Shown: piece by piece, positions 1,529 to 30,732 of the stretch
Numbering within the stretch: the stretch's first letter is position 1
How the letters are laid out: each line of letters starts with the position of its first letter
Assembly: GCF_046105845.1 (NCBI RefSeq)
Contig: NZ_CP151004.1
Strand: one strand, 5' to 3'
Source: Escherichia coli
GTDB taxonomy: Bacteria; Pseudomonadota; Gammaproteobacteria; Enterobacterales; Enterobacteriaceae
DNA: 64,000 nt
Notes under the pieces: generated by a model
The model's input: only the letters and a program-made list of their open reading frames with translations
What the model was told of the DNA's origin: nothing
Database searches by the model: none
Translations under genes and position numbers: made by a program

Positions 1529-2537
1529 GGCTACGCACTCCTTTAATCAGACTGATAAAGCGTTGCGACTGGACAATCAGCACGCAAAGCACCACCACCG
1601 CTTTCACCACCTGGTTCATCTCCGGCGGAAAGCCCGAAAGCAAAATTCCGGTGTTCATCCCCTGAATAATCAGCGCCCCCACCACCGAAAGCAGTAGGTT
1701 AAAACGTCCGCCCATCAGCGAACCACCGCCAATCACCACCGCGAGAATGGCGTCCAGCTCCAGCCATAATCCGGCGTTGTTGGCATCGGCACCGCGAATA
1801 TCCGCCGCCACGATAATGCCCGCAATCGCCGCACACAGCCCGCTCAACACGTAGGTGAGCATGACGATGATTCGCGTGTTGACTCCGGCATTTTTTGCCG
1901 CCCGAATGTTGATACCAACGGCTTCGATAAACATCCCCAGCGCCGTTTTGCGGGTCAACAGCCAGAACAGGAGAAGCGTCAGCACCGCGATAATGACCGG
2001 CGTTGGCAGGAACAATAGCGATCCGCTGCCAAACCATGAGAGATCCGGCGAGTTAAACGTGACGATCTGTCCGGAGGTGATCAGTTGCGCCACGCCGCGC
2101 CCGGCGACCATCAGGATCAGGGTGGCAACAAACGGCTGAATTTTGAGGATCGCTACCAGTATGCCGTTCCACAATCCCGCCAGGATGCCAGTGCCCAGGG
2201 AGCTTAACAAAACAATCGGCAGGCTGAATCCAGCGACCGTCATCGCAGCCGTTGTGGCTCCGGCGATAGCCATCACCGCCCCCACGGAGAGATCAATCCC
2301 ACCAGTGGCGATCACCAGCGTCATACCAATCGCCAACAGCGCAACGGGGGCGGCGCGATTAAGAATGTCGATAGGGCTACCGAACAAACGCCCATCCTGA
2401 AGCACCACCTGCCAGAAATGCGGGGCTACCAGGCTGTCGACCAGCAGCACCAGCAATAGTGCTACCAGCTGCGGCATTCCTGTTGGCCAGCGAAAGCGCC
2501 TTTTCGGCGGCGTAGTGTCCGGGAGAGATTGAGGCAT
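1515..2537 (-). CDS. ytfT: ABC transporter permease
   Basis: Track ORF 1515..2561; start trimmed to internal Met (MPQSLPDTTPP…) to give about 340 aa; overlaps yjfF start. Confidence 0.8.
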   Translation of the reverse strand: MPQSLPDTTPPKRRFRWPTGMPQLVALLLVLLVDSLVAPHFWQVVLQDGRLFGSPIDILNRAAPVALLAIGMTLVIATGGIDLSVGAVMAIAGATTAAMTVAGFSLPIVLLSSLGTGILAGLWNGILVAILKIQPFVATLILMVAGRGVAQLITSGQIVTFNSPDLSWFGSGSLLFLPTPVIIAVLTLLLFWLLTRKTALGMFIEAVGINIRAAKNAGVNTRIIVMLTYVLSGLCAAIAGIIVAADIRGADANNAGLWLELDAILAVVIGGGSLMGGRFNLLLSVVGALIIQGMNTGILLSGFPPEMNQVVKAVVVLCVLIVQSQRFISLIKGVRSRDKT

Positions 2538-2550
2538 CACACTGTTCTCC

Positions 2551-4053
2551 TTACGCCGCAATGGCGTTCATGATCGCCGGAACGGAAAGCTCTGCCAGCG
2601 GGATCTCCGCTACCTGTTTGCGATCGCGCATGATAATCACCCGGTCGGCATAGCCCACCAGCTCTTCCAGCTCGGAGGAGATCACCAGCAGCGCCAGTCC
2701 ATCGGCGCACAGCGTTTCAATCAGGCGGATGATCTCGGCGTGGGCACCAACATCAATTCCGCGCGTTGGCTCGTCGAGGATCAGAAATTGCGGTCGGGTC
2801 AGTAGCCAACGTGAAAGCAACACTTTTTGCTGATTGCCGCCGGAGAGAAATTCAATCGGTTGTTCGGTTGAAGGTGTGCGAATGCCAAGCTGGCGGATAA
2901 AGCGTTGGGCAATCTCTTGCTGTTCTTTGCGGGAAATCGGTCGTAGCCAGCCGCGCTGGGCCTGGAGAGCGAGGATGATATTTTCCCGCACCGAGGCGGC
3001 GGCGATGATGCCATCGGTTTTCCTGTCTTCCGGGCAGAAGCCGATGCCCAGTACCGAAGCCTGATGTGGCGATCGCAGGGTTTGCGGTTTGCCTTTGATC
3101 AACGCCGTGCCGCTATCAGCTGGTTTGATACCGAAGATCACTTCGGCAGTTTCGGTACGTCCTGATCCCAGCAAGCCTGCCAGACCGACGATCTCGCCGG
3201 GGCGTACTTCGAGATCAAACGGTGCGATCGTTCCTTTTTTGCCGTAATTTTTGAACGCGGCAACGGGTTTGTCGCTCAGCAATGTTCGTCCGGCACGCTG
3301 TAGCGCGTGGGTGTCCAGCTCGCGCCCCAGCATCATTTTTACCAGTTCGATCTGCGGTAGCTCGCGGGTTTCCCGACAGCCTACGAAACTGCCGTTGCGT
3401 AAGACGGTGATCCGATCGCTGACCTGATAGACCTGATCGAGAAAGTGAGTAACGAAGATCAGGCTGACGCCGCGATCGCGCAACTGACGCATCAGGCCAA
3501 ACAGTAACTCTACTTCCTGAGTGTCGAGGCTGGCGGTGGGTTCATCGAGGATCAGCACTTTGGCGGAGAGATCGATGGCCCGGCAAATGGCGACGATTTG
3601 CTGCATCGCGACTGAAAAGCGGTTGAGCGGTTCGCGCACGTCGAGGGAGAAACCGTAAGATGCCATCAGTTCGGTGGCGCGCTTTTCCATCTCTTTACGG
3701 CGTAGAAGGCCGAAACGTTTGGGTTCGCGACCTATGAATAGATTATCAGCGACCGACATATTGGGTAGCAGGTTGACTTCCTGATAGACGGTGCCGATGC
3801 CGAGTTGTTGTGCATGGGCGGTATTTTTCGGTGAAATAGTCTGGCCTTCCAGCCAGATGGTGCCACGATCGGCGTGGTAGACACCGGTTAATGCTTTGAT
3901 TAGCGTTGATTTTCCCGCCCCGTTTTCACCGAGCAGCGCCATGATTTCACCACGGCGCAGGCTGAAATCAACGTTGTCTAACGCTTTGACACCGGGGAAA
4001 AATTTACTTAATCCTTCGGTGCGGAGGATTTCCTGGTGTTGGTTAGTATTCAT
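2551..4053 (-). CDS. ytfR: ABC transporter ATP-binding protein with duplicated ATPase domains
   Basis: Two Walker A motifs (GENGAGKS, GLLGSGRT) and LSGG signature; start trimmed to MNTNQHQEILRTEGL giving 500 aa. Confidence 0.88.
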   Translation of the reverse strand: MNTNQHQEILRTEGLSKFFPGVKALDNVDFSLRRGEIMALLGENGAGKSTLIKALTGVYHADRGTIWLEGQTISPKNTAHAQQLGIGTVYQEVNLLPNMSVADNLFIGREPKRFGLLRRKEMEKRATELMASYGFSLDVREPLNRFSVAMQQIVAICRAIDLSAKVLILDEPTASLDTQEVELLFGLMRQLRDRGVSLIFVTHFLDQVYQVSDRITVLRNGSFVGCRETRELPQIELVKMMLGRELDTHALQRAGRTLLSDKPVAAFKNYGKKGTIAPFDLEVRPGEIVGLAGLLGSGRTETAEVIFGIKPADSGTALIKGKPQTLRSPHQASVLGIGFCPEDRKTDGIIAAASVRENIILALQAQRGWLRPISRKEQQEIAQRFIRQLGIRTPSTEQPIEFLSGGNQQKVLLSRWLLTRPQFLILDEPTRGIDVGAHAEIIRLIETLCADGLALLVISSELEELVGYADRVIIMRDRKQVAEIPLAELSVPAIMNAIAA

Positions 4054-4095
4054 AGTTTCCCCCGTTGTAAAGCGTGCGCCAGATAAGACACAACA

Positions 4096-4183
4096 GCGTC
4101 GCATCAGGCATCTCGCACAACCGCCGGATGCGGCGTGAATGCCTTATCCGGCGGCCCACAAGTCGGCATCAGGCATTGATGCC
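4096..4183. repeat. REP/BIME-like palindromic units in ytfR-ytfQ intergenic region
   Basis: GCCGGATGCGGCGTGAATGCCTTATCCGGC-type imperfect palindromes typical of enterobacterial REP. Confidence 0.75.
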
Positions 4184-4185
4184 CC

Positions 4186-5142
4186 TCAATACCCCATGTT
4201 TTTCTTCTTCTCTAACTCTTCTTTTGCGGTATCAGGCAGGTAAAGGGTGGACTTGGTCAGGGTCAGCTTTTCAGGCATGGTGCCGTCTTTTTTATATTTC
4301 TCCAGCGCATCAAAAGCGGGGCCTGCCATGTTCGGCGTCAGTTCAACGCTGGCGTTCGCTTCGCCATCAATCATCGCTTTGTAGATGTCCGGCACGCCGT
4401 CGATAGAGCCTGTCAGGATATCTTTGCCCGGTTTCAGGCCCGCTTCTTTAATTGCCTGAATTGCACCAATCACCATGTCATCGTTATGGGCGTAAACCAT
4501 GCAGATGTTTTTGCCGTTGTTTTCCGCTTTGATAAAGCTCTCCATGACTTCTTTGCCTTTACTGCGGGTGAAGTCACCTGACTGCGAGCGGATAATTTTG
4601 ATATTTGGCGCATTCTTTATGGCTTCGGCAAAGCCTTTCTTACGGTCAATGGCGACGCTGGCCCCAACAGTGCCCTGCAGCTCCACCACGTTGCATGGTT
4701 TGCCATTCACTTCTTTTACCAGCCAGTCACCAATCAACTTGCCTTCGAGGATGTTGTCGGCAGTGACGGTGGTCATATAGAGAGACTTGTCTTTCACATC
4801 GATGGAACGATCGAGCAAGAAGACCGGGATTTCGGCATCTTTCGCCTCTTTTAATACCGGCTCCCAACCGGTCGCTACCACTGGAGCGATAAAGATCGCA
4901 TCCACCCCTTGTGCAACGAAGGAACGTACCGCTTTAATCTGGTTTTCCTGCTTTTGTTGACCATCGGCGATTTTCAGTGTGATACCGCGTTTTTCGGCTT
5001 CACTTTTCGCCACGTTGGTTTCAGCGGCACGCCAGCCGGATTCCGATCCGACCTGCGAAAATCCAACGGTTAATGGAGCGGCCAACGCCATAGACGACAT
5101 GGCTGCCGAGACTGCAGAGACTACAAGTAAGCGTTTCCACAT
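4186..5142 (-). CDS. ytfQ: periplasmic sugar-binding protein of ABC transporter
   Basis: 318-aa ORF with signal peptide (MWKRLLVVSAVSAAMSSMALA) and periplasmic binding-protein fold signature; operon context. Confidence 0.88.
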   Translation of the reverse strand: MWKRLLVVSAVSAAMSSMALAAPLTVGFSQVGSESGWRAAETNVAKSEAEKRGITLKIADGQQKQENQIKAVRSFVAQGVDAIFIAPVVATGWEPVLKEAKDAEIPVFLLDRSIDVKDKSLYMTTVTADNILEGKLIGDWLVKEVNGKPCNVVELQGTVGASVAIDRKKGFAEAIKNAPNIKIIRSQSGDFTRSKGKEVMESFIKAENNGKNICMVYAHNDDMVIGAIQAIKEAGLKPGKDILTGSIDGVPDIYKAMIDGEANASVELTPNMAGPAFDALEKYKKDGTMPEKLTLTKSTLYLPDTAKEELEKKKNMGY

Positions 5143-5384
5143 AGGGTTGTCCTCGTCGGGGTAATTATTATTGGTGAAAAGATGTTCGCGAAAAAACTAT
5201 AGACAATTCGTTATGTAACGGATTGCGTTACATCACACTTCAAAAAAGTAAATAAAACGTTAATCACAAGTTTGTAATCGCTTTCATCTCACTATGAAAA
5301 ATGCGGCTACGGTTATGGATTTTCCTGCTCTTTAAACCACCTTAAAACTGGCTAAAAAGGAAAATGAAGAAGAAAACAAGCGAA

Positions 5385-5410
5385 GACATTCGGCGCGAGT
5401 TGGCTATAAT
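5385..5410 (+). promoter_or_regulatory. putative sigma70 promoter for ppa (-10 TATAAT, weak -35 GACATT)
   Basis: TATAAT hexamer at about 5405..5410, 41 bp upstream of ppa ATG; -35-like hexamer with 14-bp spacer. Confidence 0.35.
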
Positions 5411-5451
5411 ACTCGGCACTTGTTTGCCACATATTTTTAAAGGAAACAGAC

Positions 5452-5982
5452 ATGAGCTTACTCAACGTCCCTGCGGGTAAAGATCTGCCGGAAGACATCT
5501 ACGTTGTTATTGAGATCCCGGCTAACGCAGATCCGATCAAATACGAAATCGACAAAGAGAGCGGCGCACTGTTCGTTGACCGCTTCATGTCCACCGCGAT
5601 GTTCTATCCGTGCAACTACGGTTACATCAACCACACCCTGTCTCTGGACGGTGACCCGGTTGACGTACTGGTCCCGACTCCGTACCCGCTGCAGCCGGGT
5701 TCTGTGATCCGTTGCCGTCCGGTTGGCGTTCTGAAAATGACCGACGAAGCCGGTGAAGATGCGAAACTGGTTGCGGTTCCGCACAGCAAGCTGAGCAAAG
5801 AATACGATCACATTAAAGACGTTAACGATCTGCCTGAACTGCTGAAAGCACAGATCGCTCACTTCTTCGAGCACTACAAAGACCTCGAAAAAGGCAAGTG
5901 GGTGAAAGTTGAAGGCTGGGAAAACGCAGAAGCCGCTAAAGCTGAAATCGTTGCCTCCTTCGAGCGCGCAAAGAATAAATAA
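5452..5982 (+). CDS. ppa: inorganic pyrophosphatase
   Basis: 176-aa ORF; sequence recognisable as E. coli PPase (…[29 protein letters not shown]…). Confidence 0.95.
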
Positions 5983-6000
5983 GTTCTTCTAGCGCAATAA

Positions 6001-6036
6001 CCCTGAACGCCGGGCTTCGGTTAGTAAGGGTTTTTT
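6001..6036 (+). terminator. putative rho-independent terminator downstream of ppa
   Basis: GC-rich stem region CCCTGAACGCCGGGCTTCGG…AAGGG followed by TTTTTT. Confidence 0.5.
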
Positions 6037-6060
6037 ATGCCCGCGATAAATAAACACGCC

Positions 6061-6411
6061 TTATTCCACCACCGCCTGCAAACGTAATAACGCCTCTTCC
6101 ACCACTTCACCCGCAGCCAGACCAATACGCTTTGCCAGCCGGGCGCGTAGATCCATCATCCGCACCTGATTCACCAGCACCACGCCGTGCACATCGCCTT
6201 CTTCGCAATGTAAAGGAACGCTGAATCCTGCATAACGGGCAAAATTTCCGCCCTGCGTAATGGGGGCCACCAGCGTCATTCCCAGTTGATTAAAGGCTTG
6301 AACGGAGAGCACAAGCGCAGGTCGACCAGCACCTTGCTGTTCATGGCCGCTTGCTGGATCAAAGCCAACCAGCACAATGTCTCCCCGTTCAAATTCACTT
6401 TTCTTTACCAT
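6061..6411 (-). CDS. chpB: MazF/PemK-family endoribonuclease toxin ChpBK
   Basis: 116-aa ORF (MVKKSEFERGDIVLVGFDPASGHEQ…); start overlaps stop of upstream antitoxin gene. Confidence 0.9.
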   Translation of the reverse strand: MVKKSEFERGDIVLVGFDPASGHEQQGAGRPALVLSVQAFNQLGMTLVAPITQGGNFARYAGFSVPLHCEEGDVHGVVLVNQVRMMDLRARLAKRIGLAAGEVVEEALLRLQAVVE

Positions 6412-6656
6412 ATTTCGTCACCCGCAGGGGTGGATTTACCCCAGACATCCTGCTCGCTAAGTTCCGTGGCGTTCATGTCACACTGTGCCAGCAGTTCATC
6501 AAGCGAGTAGCGCCTGGAGATGGGTGTCAGAATCAGTTGATTGTTGCTCACTTGCGCCTCCACGCTCTGCCCCGGCCGTAAGTTAAGTTCTTTCATCACA
6601 ACATTAGGAATGACCATACCTGAACTATTCCCCCATCTTTTTATGGTAATACGCAT
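6405..6656 (-). CDS. chpS: MazE/AbrB-type antitoxin ChpBI
   Basis: 83-aa product from internal Met (MRITIKRWGNSSGMVIPN…); SD AAGGAGG upstream; classic antitoxin-toxin gene pair. Confidence 0.88.
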   Translation of the reverse strand: MRITIKRWGNSSGMVIPNVVMKELNLRPGQSVEAQVSNNQLILTPISRRYSLDELLAQCDMNATELSEQDVWGKSTPAGDEIW

Positions 6657-6669
6657 CTGCACCTCCTTA

Positions 6670-6688
6670 AGTTATACAAAGTATAACT
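6670..6688. promoter_or_regulatory. 8-3-8 inverted repeat AGTTATACaaaGTATAACT immediately upstream of chpS; candidate autoregulatory operator
   Basis: Perfect palindrome a few bp upstream of the chpS SD; TA operons are typically autorepressed at such sites. Confidence 0.5.
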
Positions 6689-6815
6689 CACGGTGCTACA
6701 GGAAACGTTTTACCCCTGCGCATTTGTGAACGCCAGCAGAGTTTTTTATGCGTTAACAGATATGGAAAGCGGCTCGGAGAGAAAAGCAAAAGGTGAGGGA
6801 ATTACAAAACAGAAT

Positions 6816-6856
6816 GCGAGTCGTCTCGCAAAAAACAACGCCACCCGAAGGTGGCG
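6816..6856 (-). terminator. rho-independent terminator downstream of ytfP (tandem hairpins)
   Basis: On minus strand GCCACCttcgGGTGGC followed by GTTGTTTTTTG, then GCGAGacgaCTCGC. Confidence 0.75.
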
Positions 6857-6861
6857 TATGG

Positions 6862-7203
6862 TTACTTATCCCTGTCTAACCAGTCGCCGCTTTCAATTAG
6901 CTTTAATCCATCGACGGGTCGTTGATAAACGTACATCCATGCACTCCCGTACGGCGTCTGAATCAACTGGCGCGCGTATTCACCGCCCCTGGTGCGCAAG
7001 GCATCAAGTTCGGCCAGCGTGGCGTTGTCAATACGATAAACTTCACCGTGTACTGTTCCGTTCCCCGGAACTGCGCCTGGATAGTGGCCCAGGCTATACA
7101 ACTGGTAGTTATCGATACTGAAATCGCCCAGTAACTGGGCATTGGTCATCCAGTGACTGTTGCCTTGTTTGTGGCGTAAACTGCCGTAGACAAATATTCG
7201 CAT
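6862..7203 (-). CDS. ytfP: gamma-glutamylcyclotransferase-like (AIG2-like) protein
   Basis: 113-aa ORF (MRIFVYGSLRHKQGNSHWM…) with YGSL motif; directly downstream of tamB. Confidence 0.85.
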   Translation of the reverse strand: MRIFVYGSLRHKQGNSHWMTNAQLLGDFSIDNYQLYSLGHYPGAVPGNGTVHGEVYRIDNATLAELDALRTRGGEYARQLIQTPYGSAWMYVYQRPVDGLKLIESGDWLDRDK

Positions 7204-7205
7204 TG

Positions 7206-12757
<5,552 letters not shown>

Positions 12758-26144: not shown

Positions 26145-26361
26145 CGTATTTCCTTTCTTAGGGTATAAAGTAGCGGGCAGCATATCAGCCACACTTCTTT
26201 GGGTAAAACTTTGTCGCGGGAATGATGACAAATCCCGGGGAAAAAGAAACAATAGCAATATCCCGTATGAATATAATAAAGGCGGGTTTACCACGGACAT
26301 CATAGCGTTAGCTTATTCATAGGCTATGATTGAGGAACAAGACGCGGAGCAGGAGGAAACC

Positions 26362-27000
26362 ATGCCCGGGCGCTTTGAACTAAAACCAACCCTGGAGAAA
26401 GTCTGGCACGCGCCGGACAATTTTCTCTTCATGGACCCGCTGCCGCCGATGCATCGTCGGGGGATCATTATTGCCGCCATTGTATTGGTGGTCGGATTTC
26501 TGCTTCCATCTGATGATACGCCCAACGCGCCGGTGGTGACGCGTGAAGCGCAGTTAGATATTCAGTCGCAATCACAACCACCGACAGAAGAACAGCTGCG
26601 GGCGCAATTAGTCACGCCACAAAATGATCCTGATCAGGTGGCTCCGGTCGCTCCAGAACCAATACAGGAAGGCCAGCCAGAAGAGCAGCCGCACCCCCCC
26701 CAAACGCAACCATTCCAGCCAGATAGCGGAATTGATAATCAATGGCGCTCTTACCGTGTCGAACCCGGTAAAACGATGGCACAGCTGTTCCGCGACCACG
26801 GGCTGCCCGCTACCGATGTCTATGCAATGGCGCAGGTAGAAGGCGCGGGTAAGCCGCTGAGTAATTTGCAAAACGGGCAGATGGTGAAAATCCGCCAGAA
26901 CGCCAGCGGCGTGGTGACGGGCTTAACCATTGATACGGGGAATAATCAACAGGTCCTGTTTACCCGTCAGCCGGATGGCAGTTTTATTCGCGCGCGGTAG
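26362..27000 (+). CDS. ytfB: OapA/LysM-like cell-division-associated protein
   Basis: Start trimmed to [21 protein letters not shown]… (212 aa); single TM then periplasmic domain. Confidence 0.85.
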
Positions 27001-27134
27001 ATGAAGGGTCAACCAGAAGCCAGCTAAGGAGCGTCTCTTTGATGACCTTACGTCTGGCTTCCAGTGCCTGGGGTGAAACCATACTGATATGTTGACATCC
27101 TCCACGCCCTGAAGGACGTGGATCCCTGCTACGT

Positions 27135-28343
27135 TCAGGCTGTCGCCTGAATCATTTCGGTGGGTTCCTGCTTCAACGAGCGGCCTGACTGCACCATCTC
27201 TCCACAGGCAAGAACGGCGTGCCCCGCCGCTAAAATGTTACGAGCGCCGTTTACATCGGCGTTCGCTGTATATCCACATGCCTGGCATCTGAATTGACTT
27301 TGTGACAGGCGATTTTCTTTCGCTGTATGACCACAGCACGCGCAACGCTGGCTTGTGTACGCTGGCGGAACAGCAAGCACCTGACCGCCACGCCAGAGCT
27401 GCTTGTACTCAAGCTGGCGGCGCATTTCATACCAGCCCTGATCCTGTATCGAACGGTTTAAACCTGATTTTGCCCGGACATTGCGCCCCGGCTGGCTGAC
27501 CGTACCCGCTGCTGACTTTGACATGTTGCTGACCTTCAAATCCTCAATGACTATCATTGCGTGGTTTTTGCTGACGGTCGTTGTGACTTTGTGAAGGTAG
27601 TCCCTGCGGATATTTGCGATACAGGAATGCAGTCGCTGTATTTTGCGTTTCTGCTTCTGCCAGTTGTTGCTGAATTTGACCTTGCGGCTTAACTGTCGCT
27701 GAAGTCTCGCCAGCGTCTTCTGGTTTTTCTGAAAACTGTTTACAGGCCCAAAGACTGTGCCATCTGACAGCGTGGCGAGTTTAGCCACGCCAGCATCCAG
27801 CCCGACCATTGATGCTGAAGGGTGAACCGGAGTTGATACTTCATTTTCAGTCTGAATACTGATGTACCACTTACCGCAGGACTGGCTGACAGTGACATTT
27901 TTCACAACACCCGTGACCTGACGGCTATTCCGGTAGCGCATACAGCCAAGTTTCGGCAGAAAAATACGGCTGTTTTCCTGATCGAGCTTAACGCCCTGCG
28001 GGTAGCGGAATGCATCATTCTGTCCCCGCTTTTTGAATCGGGGAAAAGCAGCCCGCTTCTGGAAGAAGTTTTTGTAAGCCCGCTCAAGGTCTTTCAGTGA
28101 CTGTTGCAATGGCTGTGACGGGGCATCTTTAAGCCATTGCGTTTCAGTGGCATTTTTCCACTCAACCAGCCAGGAAGCCATTTTCCCGTAAGGGATGTAT
28201 TTATTACCGGCCTCATGATTCTCATTCTGAAGCGCCAGAGCACGATTGAAAACGAAACGACATGCGCCTGCGAAGCGCCTCATTTCACACTCCTGTTGAC
28301 CACCTGGTCTTAACTGGAATTTAAATGCCTGTAATCGTTTCAC
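27135..28343 (-). CDS. tnpB: TnpB (OrfB_IS605) RuvC-like RNA-guided endonuclease
   Basis: 402-aa ORF with RuvC-I (GLDAGV), RuvC-II (IVIEDL), zinc finger (CACCGH…CQACG) and RuvC-III ([10 protein letters not shown]) motifs. Confidence 0.9.
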
Positions 28344-28350
28344 AGGTCAA

Positions 28351-28782
28351 ATGATACTTTGGTCTATGAAAAAAGAAACCGATATCCGGCGTGGAAAGCA
28401 TTGTGTTTTCCTGATGCATGTTCACCTGGTCTTTGTCACCAAATACCGACGCCAGATTTTTGACCATGACGCGAAAGAAAAACTACGCACTTACTTTTCA
28501 AAGGTATGTGCTGATTTTGAAGCTGAACTGGTTGAAATGGATGGCGAACCAGATCACGTCCATTTGTTAATTAACTATCCTCCCAAACTGGCGATATCCA
28601 GTCTGGTAAACAGCCTCAAAGGCGTATCGAGTAGGTGACTGCGACGAGATCGACCAGATATTGCAGTCAGGTATTACTACAAAGGCGTTTTGTGGAGTCC
28701 TGGCTATTTTGCCAGTAGCTGCGGAGGTGCGCCAATATCCGCCATCCGTCAATACATTGAACAACAGCAAACACCTGGTTAG
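28351..28782 (+). pseudogene. tnpA: IS200-like Y1 HUH transposase TnpA interrupted by in-frame TGA
   Basis: HUH motif (PDHVHLLINYPPK) before a TGA at 28636..28638; the same frame continues (LRRDRPDIAVRYYYKGVLWSPGYFASSCGGAPISAIRQYIEQQQTPG) to TAG at 28780..28782. Confidence 0.75.
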
Positions 28783-28797
28783 GTGGAAAACCGCGCC

Positions 28798-29055
28798 TTA
28801 TATCCCCGCCCTGAAGGACGGGGTTTTACGGCGCACTGGATAAACCAGGCCAAGCGTATGCTGGTTGATCAAATAATATCCCCCAAGCGCAGCAATATTA
28901 ATATTCACCTGCAATGGGTCGCTATCTGCCTTAAAAATATTGTGTTTCTTCCCTTCATCCAATAATTCCATTAAATGCAAGTGCGCATGATTAATTTCTA
29001 AGAGACGCTGTGATTTTGCATAATGCACACCTTTACTTTGGTTTTCACTATGCAC
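28798..29055 (-). pseudogene. ytfA: ytfA-like remnant ORF; 3' end reads into the IS left-end hairpin
   Basis: 85-aa GTG-start ORF; last 7-8 codons (…TPSFRAGI) are encoded by the IS terminal hairpin; upstream in-frame TAA near 29182. Confidence 0.4.
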
Positions 29056-29405
29056 AATTTTTAAAAACCTGGGATTAGCAATATAATAACCCCAGGTAAA
29101 ATCGATGATTTTTTCAATGGATTTTTGTGGCTGGTTAACCTGCTGATTAACGAACGCACCGATACCGACAGCGTAGAATAATTACATACCGCACAACAAG
29201 AATGTATGGTGTAAGGCGTTGTCAGTCATCTCCCTCCCTGGATGCATCGTTATATCCGTGATGAGCGATTTTTGATATTAATATCTTTCACCATCCGCTA
29301 TCTTCACTACTTCAGAAAACAAACTTATTTTTATTAATATCGATTATTTATTCTGTGCACATTCAGCTGCGATATTTATAAAAAAATTAAACAGGCAAAA
29401 ATACA

Positions 29406-30200
29406 ATGACATTACCAACCACTATTTATTCATTTCCTGCATATTCACCCCGTTTTTCGTCCACCGACAAACCAGTAAAATTAAAATTTCATCAATACGC
29501 ACGCGCTACATTACTTTCAAATCGTGGAAGAGATCATAATTGCGATGGCAGACATACTGTTGAGATCCACAAACTAGATCTCTCAGACTGGCAAGCATTC
29601 AATAAGTTAGCGACGAGGTGTAATGCTTACGATGGAATAACAATGAATGGTGATAATTCTTTTGGATGGAACCATGAAGCTACATTAGATAATATTCACG
29701 CCCAGAAATACAATAAAGCTTACGCGGGTGCGAGGTTAACCGCAGAACTGAAATATTTATTGCAAGATGTCGAATCCTTCGAACCCAACAGTAAATACAC
29801 AATACACGAGGTTGTTTTGGGACCTGGTTATACTACTCCAGACTATACCGGCCAATCGATAGGATACGTTGTAACCCTTCCTGCCCAAATGCCTAATTGC
29901 TGGTCATCTGAACTACCAACAATCGATCTTTATATCGACCAACTTCGCACTGTTACAGGCGTTTCTAATTCCCTCGGATTCATCATTGCTGCATTGCTAA
30001 ACGCGTATTCTGATTTACCCCATGATTTGAAAATTGGTCTGCATTCCTTATCAAGTTCAGCAGCAATCTACTCGGGTTTGGGTTTCGAGCGAGTGCCGCA
30101 GGAGCGAGACATCAGTTGCGCTCGTATGTATCTAACGCCAGCAAACCATCCTGACTTATGGACACAAGAGAATGGTGAATGGATCTACTTGCGAAACTAA
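29406..30200 (+). CDS. yjfZ: uncharacterised protein YjfZ
   Basis: 264-aa ORF in AT-rich DNA; no recognisable domain. Confidence 0.75.
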   Translation: MTLPTTIYSFPAYSPRFSSTDKPVKLKFHQYARATLLSNRGRDHNCDGRHTVEIHKLDLSDWQAFNKLATRCNAYDGITMNGDNSFGWNHEATLDNIHAQKYNKAYAGARLTAELKYLLQDVESFEPNSKYTIHEVVLGPGYTTPDYTGQSIGYVVTLPAQMPNCWSSELPTIDLYIDQLRTVTGVSNSLGFIIAALLNAYSDLPHDLKIGLHSLSSSAAIYSGLGFERVPQERDISCARMYLTPANHPDLWTQENGEWIYLRN

Positions 30201-30222
30201 TACCTGACGAAAAATAGAAAGC

Positions 30223-30250
30223 AAAACGCCGACCACTGGTCGGCGTTTTT
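30223..30250. terminator. bidirectional rho-independent terminator between yjfZ and rplI
   Basis: AAAACGCCGACCactGGTCGGCGTTTTT: 10-bp GC-rich stem flanked by A-run and T-run. Confidence 0.85.
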
Positions 30251-30270
30251 ACGTCTCGTTGAATAACGAA

Positions 30271-30732
<462 letters not shown>

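Follow-up and report, generated by a model that had tools for sequence, protein, structure and literature searches.

Insertion sequences of the IS200/IS605 family are known to prefer the lagging-strand template, and their excision is precise. The target of IS608 of Helicobacter pylori is the tetranucleotide TTAC, its right end reads ...TCAA, and its hairpins lie 19 nt (left) and 10 nt (right) from the cleavage sites. This element has become the mechanistic paradigm of the family (Barabas et al. 2008, Ton-Hoang et al. 2010). One published report describes the TnpB proteins of the IS200/IS605 family as RNA-guided nucleases that cut the vacated site and thereby favour retention of the element (PMC8612924). 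A second described system, found at the very site considered here, is IS609 of E. coli O157:H7, whose transposase is named 'IS200/IS605-like element IS609 family' by PGAP.

The gene interrupted at this site is ytfA, which in E. coli K-12 (b4205; UniProt YTFA_ECOLI, 108 aa) is listed as a 'putative pseudogene'. According to a survey of TetR-family regulators, no more than a part of the E. coli strains have ytfA, and every E. fergusonii and E. albertii strain that was searched has it (PMC6790063). The full-length TetR/AcrR regulator is a protein of 215 aa (WP_001299246.1) that occurs in 3139 (58%) of the 5426 complete E. coli genomes covered by the population counts given below, and also in Shigella and Escherichia whittamii. 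It contains a TetR_N domain at residues 19-61 (E=1.9e-14) and a TetR_C_29 domain at residues 83-201. The intact gene is convergent with ytfB and divergent from an operon of eight genes that runs to rplI and encodes a 3-ketoacyl-ACP reductase, a sugar-phosphate isomerase, an enoyl-CoA hydratase, a CoA-transferase, an FAD protein and a three-gene TRAP transporter. Presumably, this operon is controlled by the TetR regulator. The operon, which is absent from the DNA analysed here, is an uncharacterised cluster found in about 58% of E. coli genomes, for example at positions 1693..10615 of the locus retrieved from strain WCHEC050613 (L006).

The window, that is, the whole stretch of 64,000 nucleotides of E. 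coli DNA that was analysed and to which all positions refer unless another locus is named, corresponds to the ytfB-to-rplI region in reverse complement relative to K-12. Its features around ytfA, in locus order, are the following.

ytfB, plus strand, 3' end at 27000: the first gene in locus order, followed by the IS, the short minus-strand ORF and yjfZ
27092..28839, minus strand: IS609-like IS200/IS605 element of 1748 bp, which on this strand begins CCAGTGCGCC and ends GGATGTCAA
28798..29055, minus strand: chimeric ORF of 85 aa with a GTG start, consisting of 72 ytfA/tetR codons, 13 IS codons and a TAA stop
29241..30217, plus strand: yjfZ islet, with yjfZ itself (DUF2686) at 29406..30200, in place of 8.8 kb of the operon of full-length strains
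rplI, rpsR, priB and rpsF, minus strand, in this order after yjfZ

The 85-aa ORF is very probably a non-functional chimera that arose through two successive and ordinary events in a TetR/AcrR gene (ytfA of E. coli), a deletion followed by the insertion of an IS609-type element. What is left of the gene in the window lies in two pieces, the first of which is continued by sequence of the IS.

28840..29131, minus strand: middle fragment of the TetR/AcrR regulator, about residues 83-180, including part of the TetR_C_29 ligand-binding domain
28798..28839, minus strand: IS left-end sequence acting as tail and stop of the ORF, the first base of its Pro codon being the first base of the IS
26984..27091, minus strand: displaced native 3' end of tetR/ytfA, H181..E215 and the stop codon, a pseudogene fragment in the PGAP annotation

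Nucleotide identity is 94.6% between the middle fragment and positions 2501..2796 of a full-length allele (L002) and 95.4% between the displaced 3' fragment and the intact gene adjoining ytfB. Over residues 83-215 the remnant is thus orthologous to WP_001299246.1 (94-95% nucleotide identity, with the same convergent overlap with ytfB), but the intact regulator has a TetR_N domain, its own promoter region and a divergent eight-gene operon, all three of which are missing from the window. The ancestral part of the ORF corresponds to V108..Y180 of the 215-aa protein with one codon deleted, and the GTG that serves as its 'start' encoded an internal Val in the ancestral gene. The ORF matches the Pfam profile TetR_C_29 (PF17938) with E=6.9e-14, which argues against a chance ORF, although the match covers only profile positions 27-109 of 119; the domain is incomplete and its last 35 native residues lie beyond the IS. 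A Pfam search returned no TetR_N match (PF00440) in either the 85-aa ORF or the K-12 remnant, whereas the full-length ortholog has one. By these alignments, the ORF is a descendant of the TetR/AcrR family, orthologous to the intact member at the same locus, but it is not a working member.

The closest described relative of the ORF, ytfA of K-12, shares with it the locus, the N-terminal truncation, the deletion junction and the internal Val/GTG start, so that codons 1-72 of the window ORF are the counterpart of K-12 codons 1-73. In contrast to the window allele, K-12 ytfA carries no IS and its ORF continues through the 35 native C-terminal codons. The two alleles differ by 8 amino-acid changes, one codon deletion and the 13 IS-encoded residues at the end. 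At the other side of the element, the 3' ends of ytfB (plus strand) and of the tetR/ytfA gene (minus strand) overlap by 17 nt (26984..27000), which means that any change there in the displaced C-terminal fragment alters ytfB too.

The exact place where the gene ends and the element begins could be fixed by comparison with empty sites and with other copies of the IS. Three features of the element are needed here.

28840..28843, minus strand: TTAT target tetranucleotide, directly adjoining the IS left end on its 5' side, with TAT as codon Y180
28804..28823, minus strand: left-end subterminal hairpin, CCCCGTCC-TTCA-GGGCGGGG, -14.1 kcal/mol (z=-2.9), 16 nt from the cleavage site
27101..27122, minus strand: right-end subterminal hairpin, followed by 9 nt that end in TCAA

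In alignments with K-12 (L001) and with a full-length strain (L002), collinearity extends up to 27088/27091 and picks up again at 28839. Read on the minus strand, the empty site is CCTGGTTTAT/CATATCAGTATGG and the occupied site consists of CCTGGTTTAT, the element (CCAGTGCGCC...GGAGGATGTCAA) and CATATCAGTATGG, with a one-base G/C ambiguity. The IS-free alleles of K-12 and the full-length strains read GGTTTAT/CATATCAG with no duplication, and the element has neither terminal inverted repeats nor a target duplication. The copies located at unrelated loci, between yeaQ and yoaG (L007) and by yedK (L008), also have a TTAT flank at the left-end side. In the first of them the terminus GGATGTCAA is followed by unrelated flanking sequence; the second aligns only from 27195 owing to an internal deletion, and GGATGTCAA is visible there as well. 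The pattern common to the three independent copies is TTAT/CC(A/G)GTGCG...GGATGTCAA/. Together, the alignments with K-12 and the full-length strain and the two additional copies fix the IS at 27092..28839, with its left boundary at 28839/28840, 3' of TTAT.

Both hairpins are imperfect, have the same orientation and fold on the minus strand, where they contain a G-T wobble that becomes a C-A mismatch on the plus strand. The GC skew of the window is -0.053, which identifies the minus strand as the G-rich leading-strand sequence and hence as the lagging-strand template; on the evidence of the skew, the active (minus) strand of the IS is on the lagging-strand template. By analogy with IS608, the end that abuts TTAT is the mechanistic left end of the element, and the label 'left end' given to this hairpin-bearing end by the first-pass annotation was correct, since it adjoins the TTAT target on the active strand. 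The likeness to IS608 extends to the subterminal imperfect hairpins, the insertion 3' of a tetranucleotide without duplication, the TCAA right end about 10 nt past the hairpin, the left hairpin at 16-19 nt from the cleavage site and the location of the active strand on the lagging-strand template. Unlike IS608, the element of the window has TTAT and not TTAC as its target, and its tnpA is inverted relative to tnpB. Seen on the plus strand, the left-end hairpin, with TTTT after it (28804..28829), is situated 22 nt past the stop codon of tnpA and could have a second role as its terminator, although it does not pass the T-run criterion of the scan.

The element carries two divergent genes.

27135..28343, minus strand: tnpB, 402 aa, intact (PF01385, E=5.9e-34; PF07282, E=9.8e-25; PF12323, E=4e-13)
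28351..28782, plus strand: tnpA, Y1 HUH transposase, divergent from tnpB, with a TGA at 28636..28638

The domains of TnpB are OrfB_IS605, Cas12f1-like TNB (zinc-ribbon) and HTH_OrfB_IS605, and the homologous TnpA of 143 aa matches PF01797 (E=2e-43). Taken together, TnpA, TnpB, the hairpins and the insertion at TTAT without duplication make the element an IS609-like member of the IS200/IS605 insertion sequences. The copy of O157:H7 at the ytfA site has an identical insertion point, orientation and divergent tnpA/tnpB organisation, and its DNA is 98.5% identical to that of the window copy (with 394 matching aligned positions in TnpB and 138 in TnpA). In contrast to the O157:H7 element, the window copy has a nonsense codon in tnpA, where codon 96 is TGA; in three other copies (L003, L005 and L007) this codon is TTA (Leu96). 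The TGA shortens TnpA from 143 to 95 aa, so that the C-terminal part, which contains the conserved SPGYF tyrosine motif, is missing, and because this motif is lost the copy is probably unable to move on its own.

An Rfam scan of 26800..29500 gave nothing at gathering thresholds. Matches below threshold were seen on the minus strand at 27079..27262, which corresponds to the 3' end of tnpB and the IS right end, with HgcC (24.6 bits, gathering threshold 50), sot0042 and RAGATH-18. HgcC and sot0042 are RNAs associated with the 3' ends of tnpB genes. The 3' end of tnpB and the IS right end may therefore encode an omega-RNA, whose putative guide would be the ytfA flank CATATCAGTATGG... adjoining the TTAT motif. 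The candidate target of TnpB and this RNA at the empty site would be TTAT-CATATCAGTATGGTTTCACC.

The consequence of the insertion for the interrupted gene is that its reading frame runs into the left end of the element. The hairpin region of the tail encodes T-P-S-F-R-A-G, directly followed by an Ile codon and the TAA stop (28800..28798). The first-pass annotation had described an 85-aa minus-strand ORF ending in ...TPSFRAGI, with these residues coming from the left-end hairpin of an IS, and both the sequence and the hairpin at 28823..28804 bear this out. The IS does supply the 3' end of the ORF, as proposed, but its contribution amounts to 13 codons and a stop (28839..28798) and not only to the eight residues that were named. 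The further claim that transposon sequence had replaced the native C-terminus holds in so far as the ORF ends in IS sequence; the native end, however, was not lost but displaced, and it is intact at 26984..27091, the last 35 codons having been moved 1.75 kb off by the IS. A comparison with IS-free strains had been suggested as a check on the origin of these last residues: after the Tyr codon, K-12 and the full-length alleles continue into 35 native codons and do not encode the PVRRK... tail of the IS. A chimera of the same type exists in another gene. In yoaG::IS609, which encodes a DUF1869 protein (WP_000513743.1) in strain CI5 and many others, an identical 13-residue tail follows a TAT codon in the same frame, which indicates that the tail is a generic by-product of the IS609 left end in that frame. 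The differences are that the host gene is another one, that only its last residues are replaced, and that PGAP accepts the chimera as an ordinary protein. The yoaG chimera with the IS609 tail (2599..2787 of L007, strain CI5) is recorded on at least 1000 contigs.

The other end of the gene had been damaged in a different way. Homology to the full-length gene ends at 29131 (residue 83), and after three bases it gives way to sequence of another gene.

29135..29240, plus strand: reductase remnant, nucleotides 89-193 of the 3-ketoacyl-ACP reductase gene (80% identity over 106 nt, E=2e-21)
29127..29134, no strand assigned: deletion junction, which fuses tetR codon ~83 to reductase nucleotide ~89

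The end of the homology and the presence of the reductase remnant imply that a deletion of 545 bp took away codons 1-82 of the regulator, the promoter region between the two genes and the reductase gene up to its nucleotide 88. Each of the six truncated alleles examined has the sequence GTGGCTGG at the junction, an argument for a deletion that originated once. In full-length strains, an 8-bp repeat, GTGGCGGA, is found at both parental endpoints and suggests a microhomology-mediated deletion between the two repeats; a mechanism of this kind is no more than suggested because the simple product expected of the 8-bp repeat departs by 2-3 bases from what is seen at the junction, GTGGCTGG-TTAACC.

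An earlier reading of this region was that ytfA had decayed by point mutation before the IS arrived, with a TAA at about 29182 that interrupted a gene starting at an ATG near 29229. Both signals are present in the sequence: an in-frame TAA occupies 29184..29182, and the 15 codons before it, MTDNALHHTFLLCGM, start with the ATG at 29229, within an ORF of 21 codons (29182..29247). Both signals share the reading frame of the 85-aa ORF, and K-12 and the closely related allele L011 have the TAA as well. Nevertheless, the full-length gene is collinear only to 29131, and from 29135 onwards the sequence is antisense to the reductase gene, with 80% identity, so that the stub is the complementary strand of the reductase remnant and not a decayed part of ytfA. 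In addition, K-12 does not conserve the stub, its sequence there being WI*RCTRGENDFHALHRTF..., and the real N-terminus of the regulator (MYLDTSNVQSLKEK..., with its HTH at 19-61) is wholly absent. Alignment to full-length loci therefore rules out the TAA/ATG stub as part of ytfA, and decay by point mutation is scarcely credible as an account of this locus. The older damage consisted in the loss of the N-terminal DNA-binding domain and of the promoter, and not in a nonsense mutation. The broader idea of an older, already decayed gene that was then cut by the IS survives, in that the gene was broken beforehand by a deletion with one shared junction, no full-length genome carrying the IS; the part that does not survive is the kind of damage.

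The neighbours of the gene changed as well. The yjfZ islet (29241..30217) stands where full-length strains have 8.8 kb of DNA with the rest of the eight-gene operon. The GC content of the ytfA fragment and of the DNA up to yjfZ is 33-40%, against 51.6% for the window, and this AT-rich context had been taken as the mark of an ancient horizontally acquired islet. This proposal is right for yjfZ, which forms the replacement islet of the operon, but the tetR gene is AT-rich even when it is intact (39.5% GC; the facing operon genes mostly have 49-55%, and the three TRAP-transporter genes 41-45%). Low GC is thus shared by a regulator gene that is AT-rich by nature and by the yjfZ islet that replaced the operon. 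Among complete E. coli RefSeq genomes, the best match to the 4 kb from 26300 to 30300 is only 98.6% identical. Strain WP4-S18-ESBL-07 matches the 720 bp around ytfA with 100% identity, and the mismatches over the 4 kb concentrate in ytfB and the IS.

The order of the two events can be approached through the distribution of the alleles in the 5426 complete genomes. The full-length junction is intact in 3139 of them and the locus is of the truncated, yjfZ type in 2224. In 1744 genomes, every one of which has the truncated gene, the IS is found at exactly the ytfA junction, and 483 genomes are truncated and free of the IS like K-12; these two groups together account for the truncated class. A search with a chimeric query found the IS at the ytfA site of a full-length tetR in none of the 5426 genomes (0/5426), and the intact gene carries the same TTAT-CATATCAG site. 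The figures of 1744 truncated and 0 full-length genomes with the IS indicate that the element is present only in an already truncated background, which supports the view that truncation came first and the IS second, an order that is inferred from co-occurrence and not from a rooted phylogeny. Because IS200/IS605 elements excise precisely, the 483 IS-free truncated genomes may be ancestral or excision products. This leaves some room for a rival reading that concerns the history only, namely that the IS-bearing state is ancestral to all truncated alleles and that the remnants of the K-12 type arose by precise excision. The excision behaviour of the family, the fact that 78% of truncated genomes carry the IS, and the seamless junction of K-12 all speak for it, but an IS that never inserted would leave the junction just as seamless, and parsimony on the genome counts favours neither history. 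Furthermore, IS609 has been described as inactive in K-12 mutation-accumulation lines (PMC5009759), which weighs against excision. An ancestral IS is accordingly rather unlikely, though it deserves to be kept in mind.

Further evidence on the fate of the remnant came from the comparison of alleles. Compared with L011, its closest relative, the allele of the window shows 3 synonymous and 9 nonsynonymous changes and one codon deletion, with an omega of 0.78 and changes scattered across all codon positions; between intact alleles, omega is about 0.06. On these values, the remnant has apparently drifted neutrally in the lineage of the window. The dN/dS outcome is nonetheless mixed across truncated alleles, about 0.8 in the window lineage and 0.02-0.06 in the remnants of K-12, O157 and L011 when they are compared with intact alleles. 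These three remnants differ from intact alleles mostly by synonymous changes, and the K-12 remnant differs from the full-length L002 allele at only 3 sites, whereas the fragment of L004 contains an internal stop. A haplotype block at 28991..29114 (nucleotides 18-141 of the remnant), in the junction-proximal part, comprises six synonymous differences at third codon positions that separate the window, L003 and L011 from the K-12 and O157 remnants. No full-length allele with this six-site block was found: the best full-length matches are of the L002 type (98.0%), and the divergent L009 allele is also without the block. Differences confined to third positions point to coding constraint in the past or to import from an intact allele outside the sample, and exchange with such an allele would be the likeliest source of the block.

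Low omega values and third-position differences raise the question of whether the truncated or chimeric product is a small protein maintained by selection, for example a ligand-binding or dominant-negative fragment of the TetR C-terminal domain. An open frame of 85-133 codons is kept in most truncated alleles examined, the K-12, O157 and L011 remnants have the mostly synonymous pattern just described, the six-site block affects third positions only, and some records list the ORF as a protein. These observations have to be set against the structure of the locus. The product would have no HTH domain, its original promoter was deleted, and the IS takes off the last 35 residues of the remaining domain. 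A consensus scan found no promoter-like site upstream of the 85-aa ORF on the minus strand; it gave 3 sites versus 2.8 expected, that is, no enrichment, and the promoter and terminator counts for 28700..29450 equalled the shuffled expectation. The GTG originally encoded a Val inside the longer protein, and direct reading revealed no Shine-Dalgarno-like sequence upstream of it. The omega of about 0.8 and the codon deletion in the window lineage, together with the internal stop of L004, also speak against selection, and the low omega found elsewhere is explained if the remnants were recently exchanged with intact alleles, as the three differing sites between K-12 and L002 illustrate. A selected functional fragment is therefore very unlikely. 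A more elaborate version, for which the retained open frame and the third-position block provide hints, would have the fragment partly alive, with read-through from the AT-rich DNA on the yjfZ side or from the IS yielding a small ligand-binding-domain peptide under some selection, and the IS609 left end acting as a generic donor of a 13-codon tail and stop, as for yoaG. Such a scenario must be regarded as extremely improbable.

The preferred reading, a gene inactivated by deletion and subsequently split by an IS, agrees with how the locus is annotated. Compared with its intact orthologs the gene is truncated and interrupted and has lost essential parts, as expected of a pseudogene, and in every IS-bearing genome examined PGAP describes both fragments as incomplete TetR/AcrR pseudogenes, with 28840..29131 labelled as missing its N- and C-terminus. 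Some records annotate the 85-aa ORF, or a longer version of 122 aa, as a hypothetical protein or TetR-family regulator, and the exact 85-aa protein is found on at least 1000 contigs in public databases, for instance in E. coli PCN033. Judged from its sequence, the 85-aa ORF is best regarded as a pseudogene, a known, ordinary and already annotated case of a gene split by an IS.

The history that emerges begins with the intact 215-aa regulator, with TetR_N HTH and TetR_C_29 domains, in the convergent and divergent arrangement that is preserved in full-length strains. In a first step, whose structure is visible in the present sequence, a single deletion of 545 bp, probably between the two GTGGCGGA repeats, removed the 5' part of the gene, and the AT-rich yjfZ islet replaced the rest of the operon. 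A promoterless fragment encoding the C-terminal domain was left behind, which is the ytfA of K-12. In a second step, again legible in the structure and with a mechanism taken from what is known of the family, an IS609-like element entered immediately 3' of TTAT, presumably by single-strand 'peel-and-paste', on the lagging-strand-template strand, and no target duplication was made. As a result, the frame of the remnant runs 13 codons into the IS left end, across the hairpin, and stops at TAA.

In conclusion, the case is of little importance in itself and its value is mainly practical and concerns annotation, in which both the 85-aa ORF and the 122-aa 'hypothetical protein' are to be handled as fragments of a pseudogene, and the upstream TAA/ATG stub is not to be read as part of the gene. 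Among E. coli genomes the ytfA locus varies, being intact in 58%, truncated in 9% and truncated with the IS in 32%, and it could serve as a lineage marker. It also illustrates stepwise gene decay, in which a DNA-binding domain and promoter are deleted, the regulated operon is replaced and an IS is then inserted, and it indicates that the left end of an IS200/IS605 element is able to lend a short in-frame tail and a stop codon to the gene that it interrupts.
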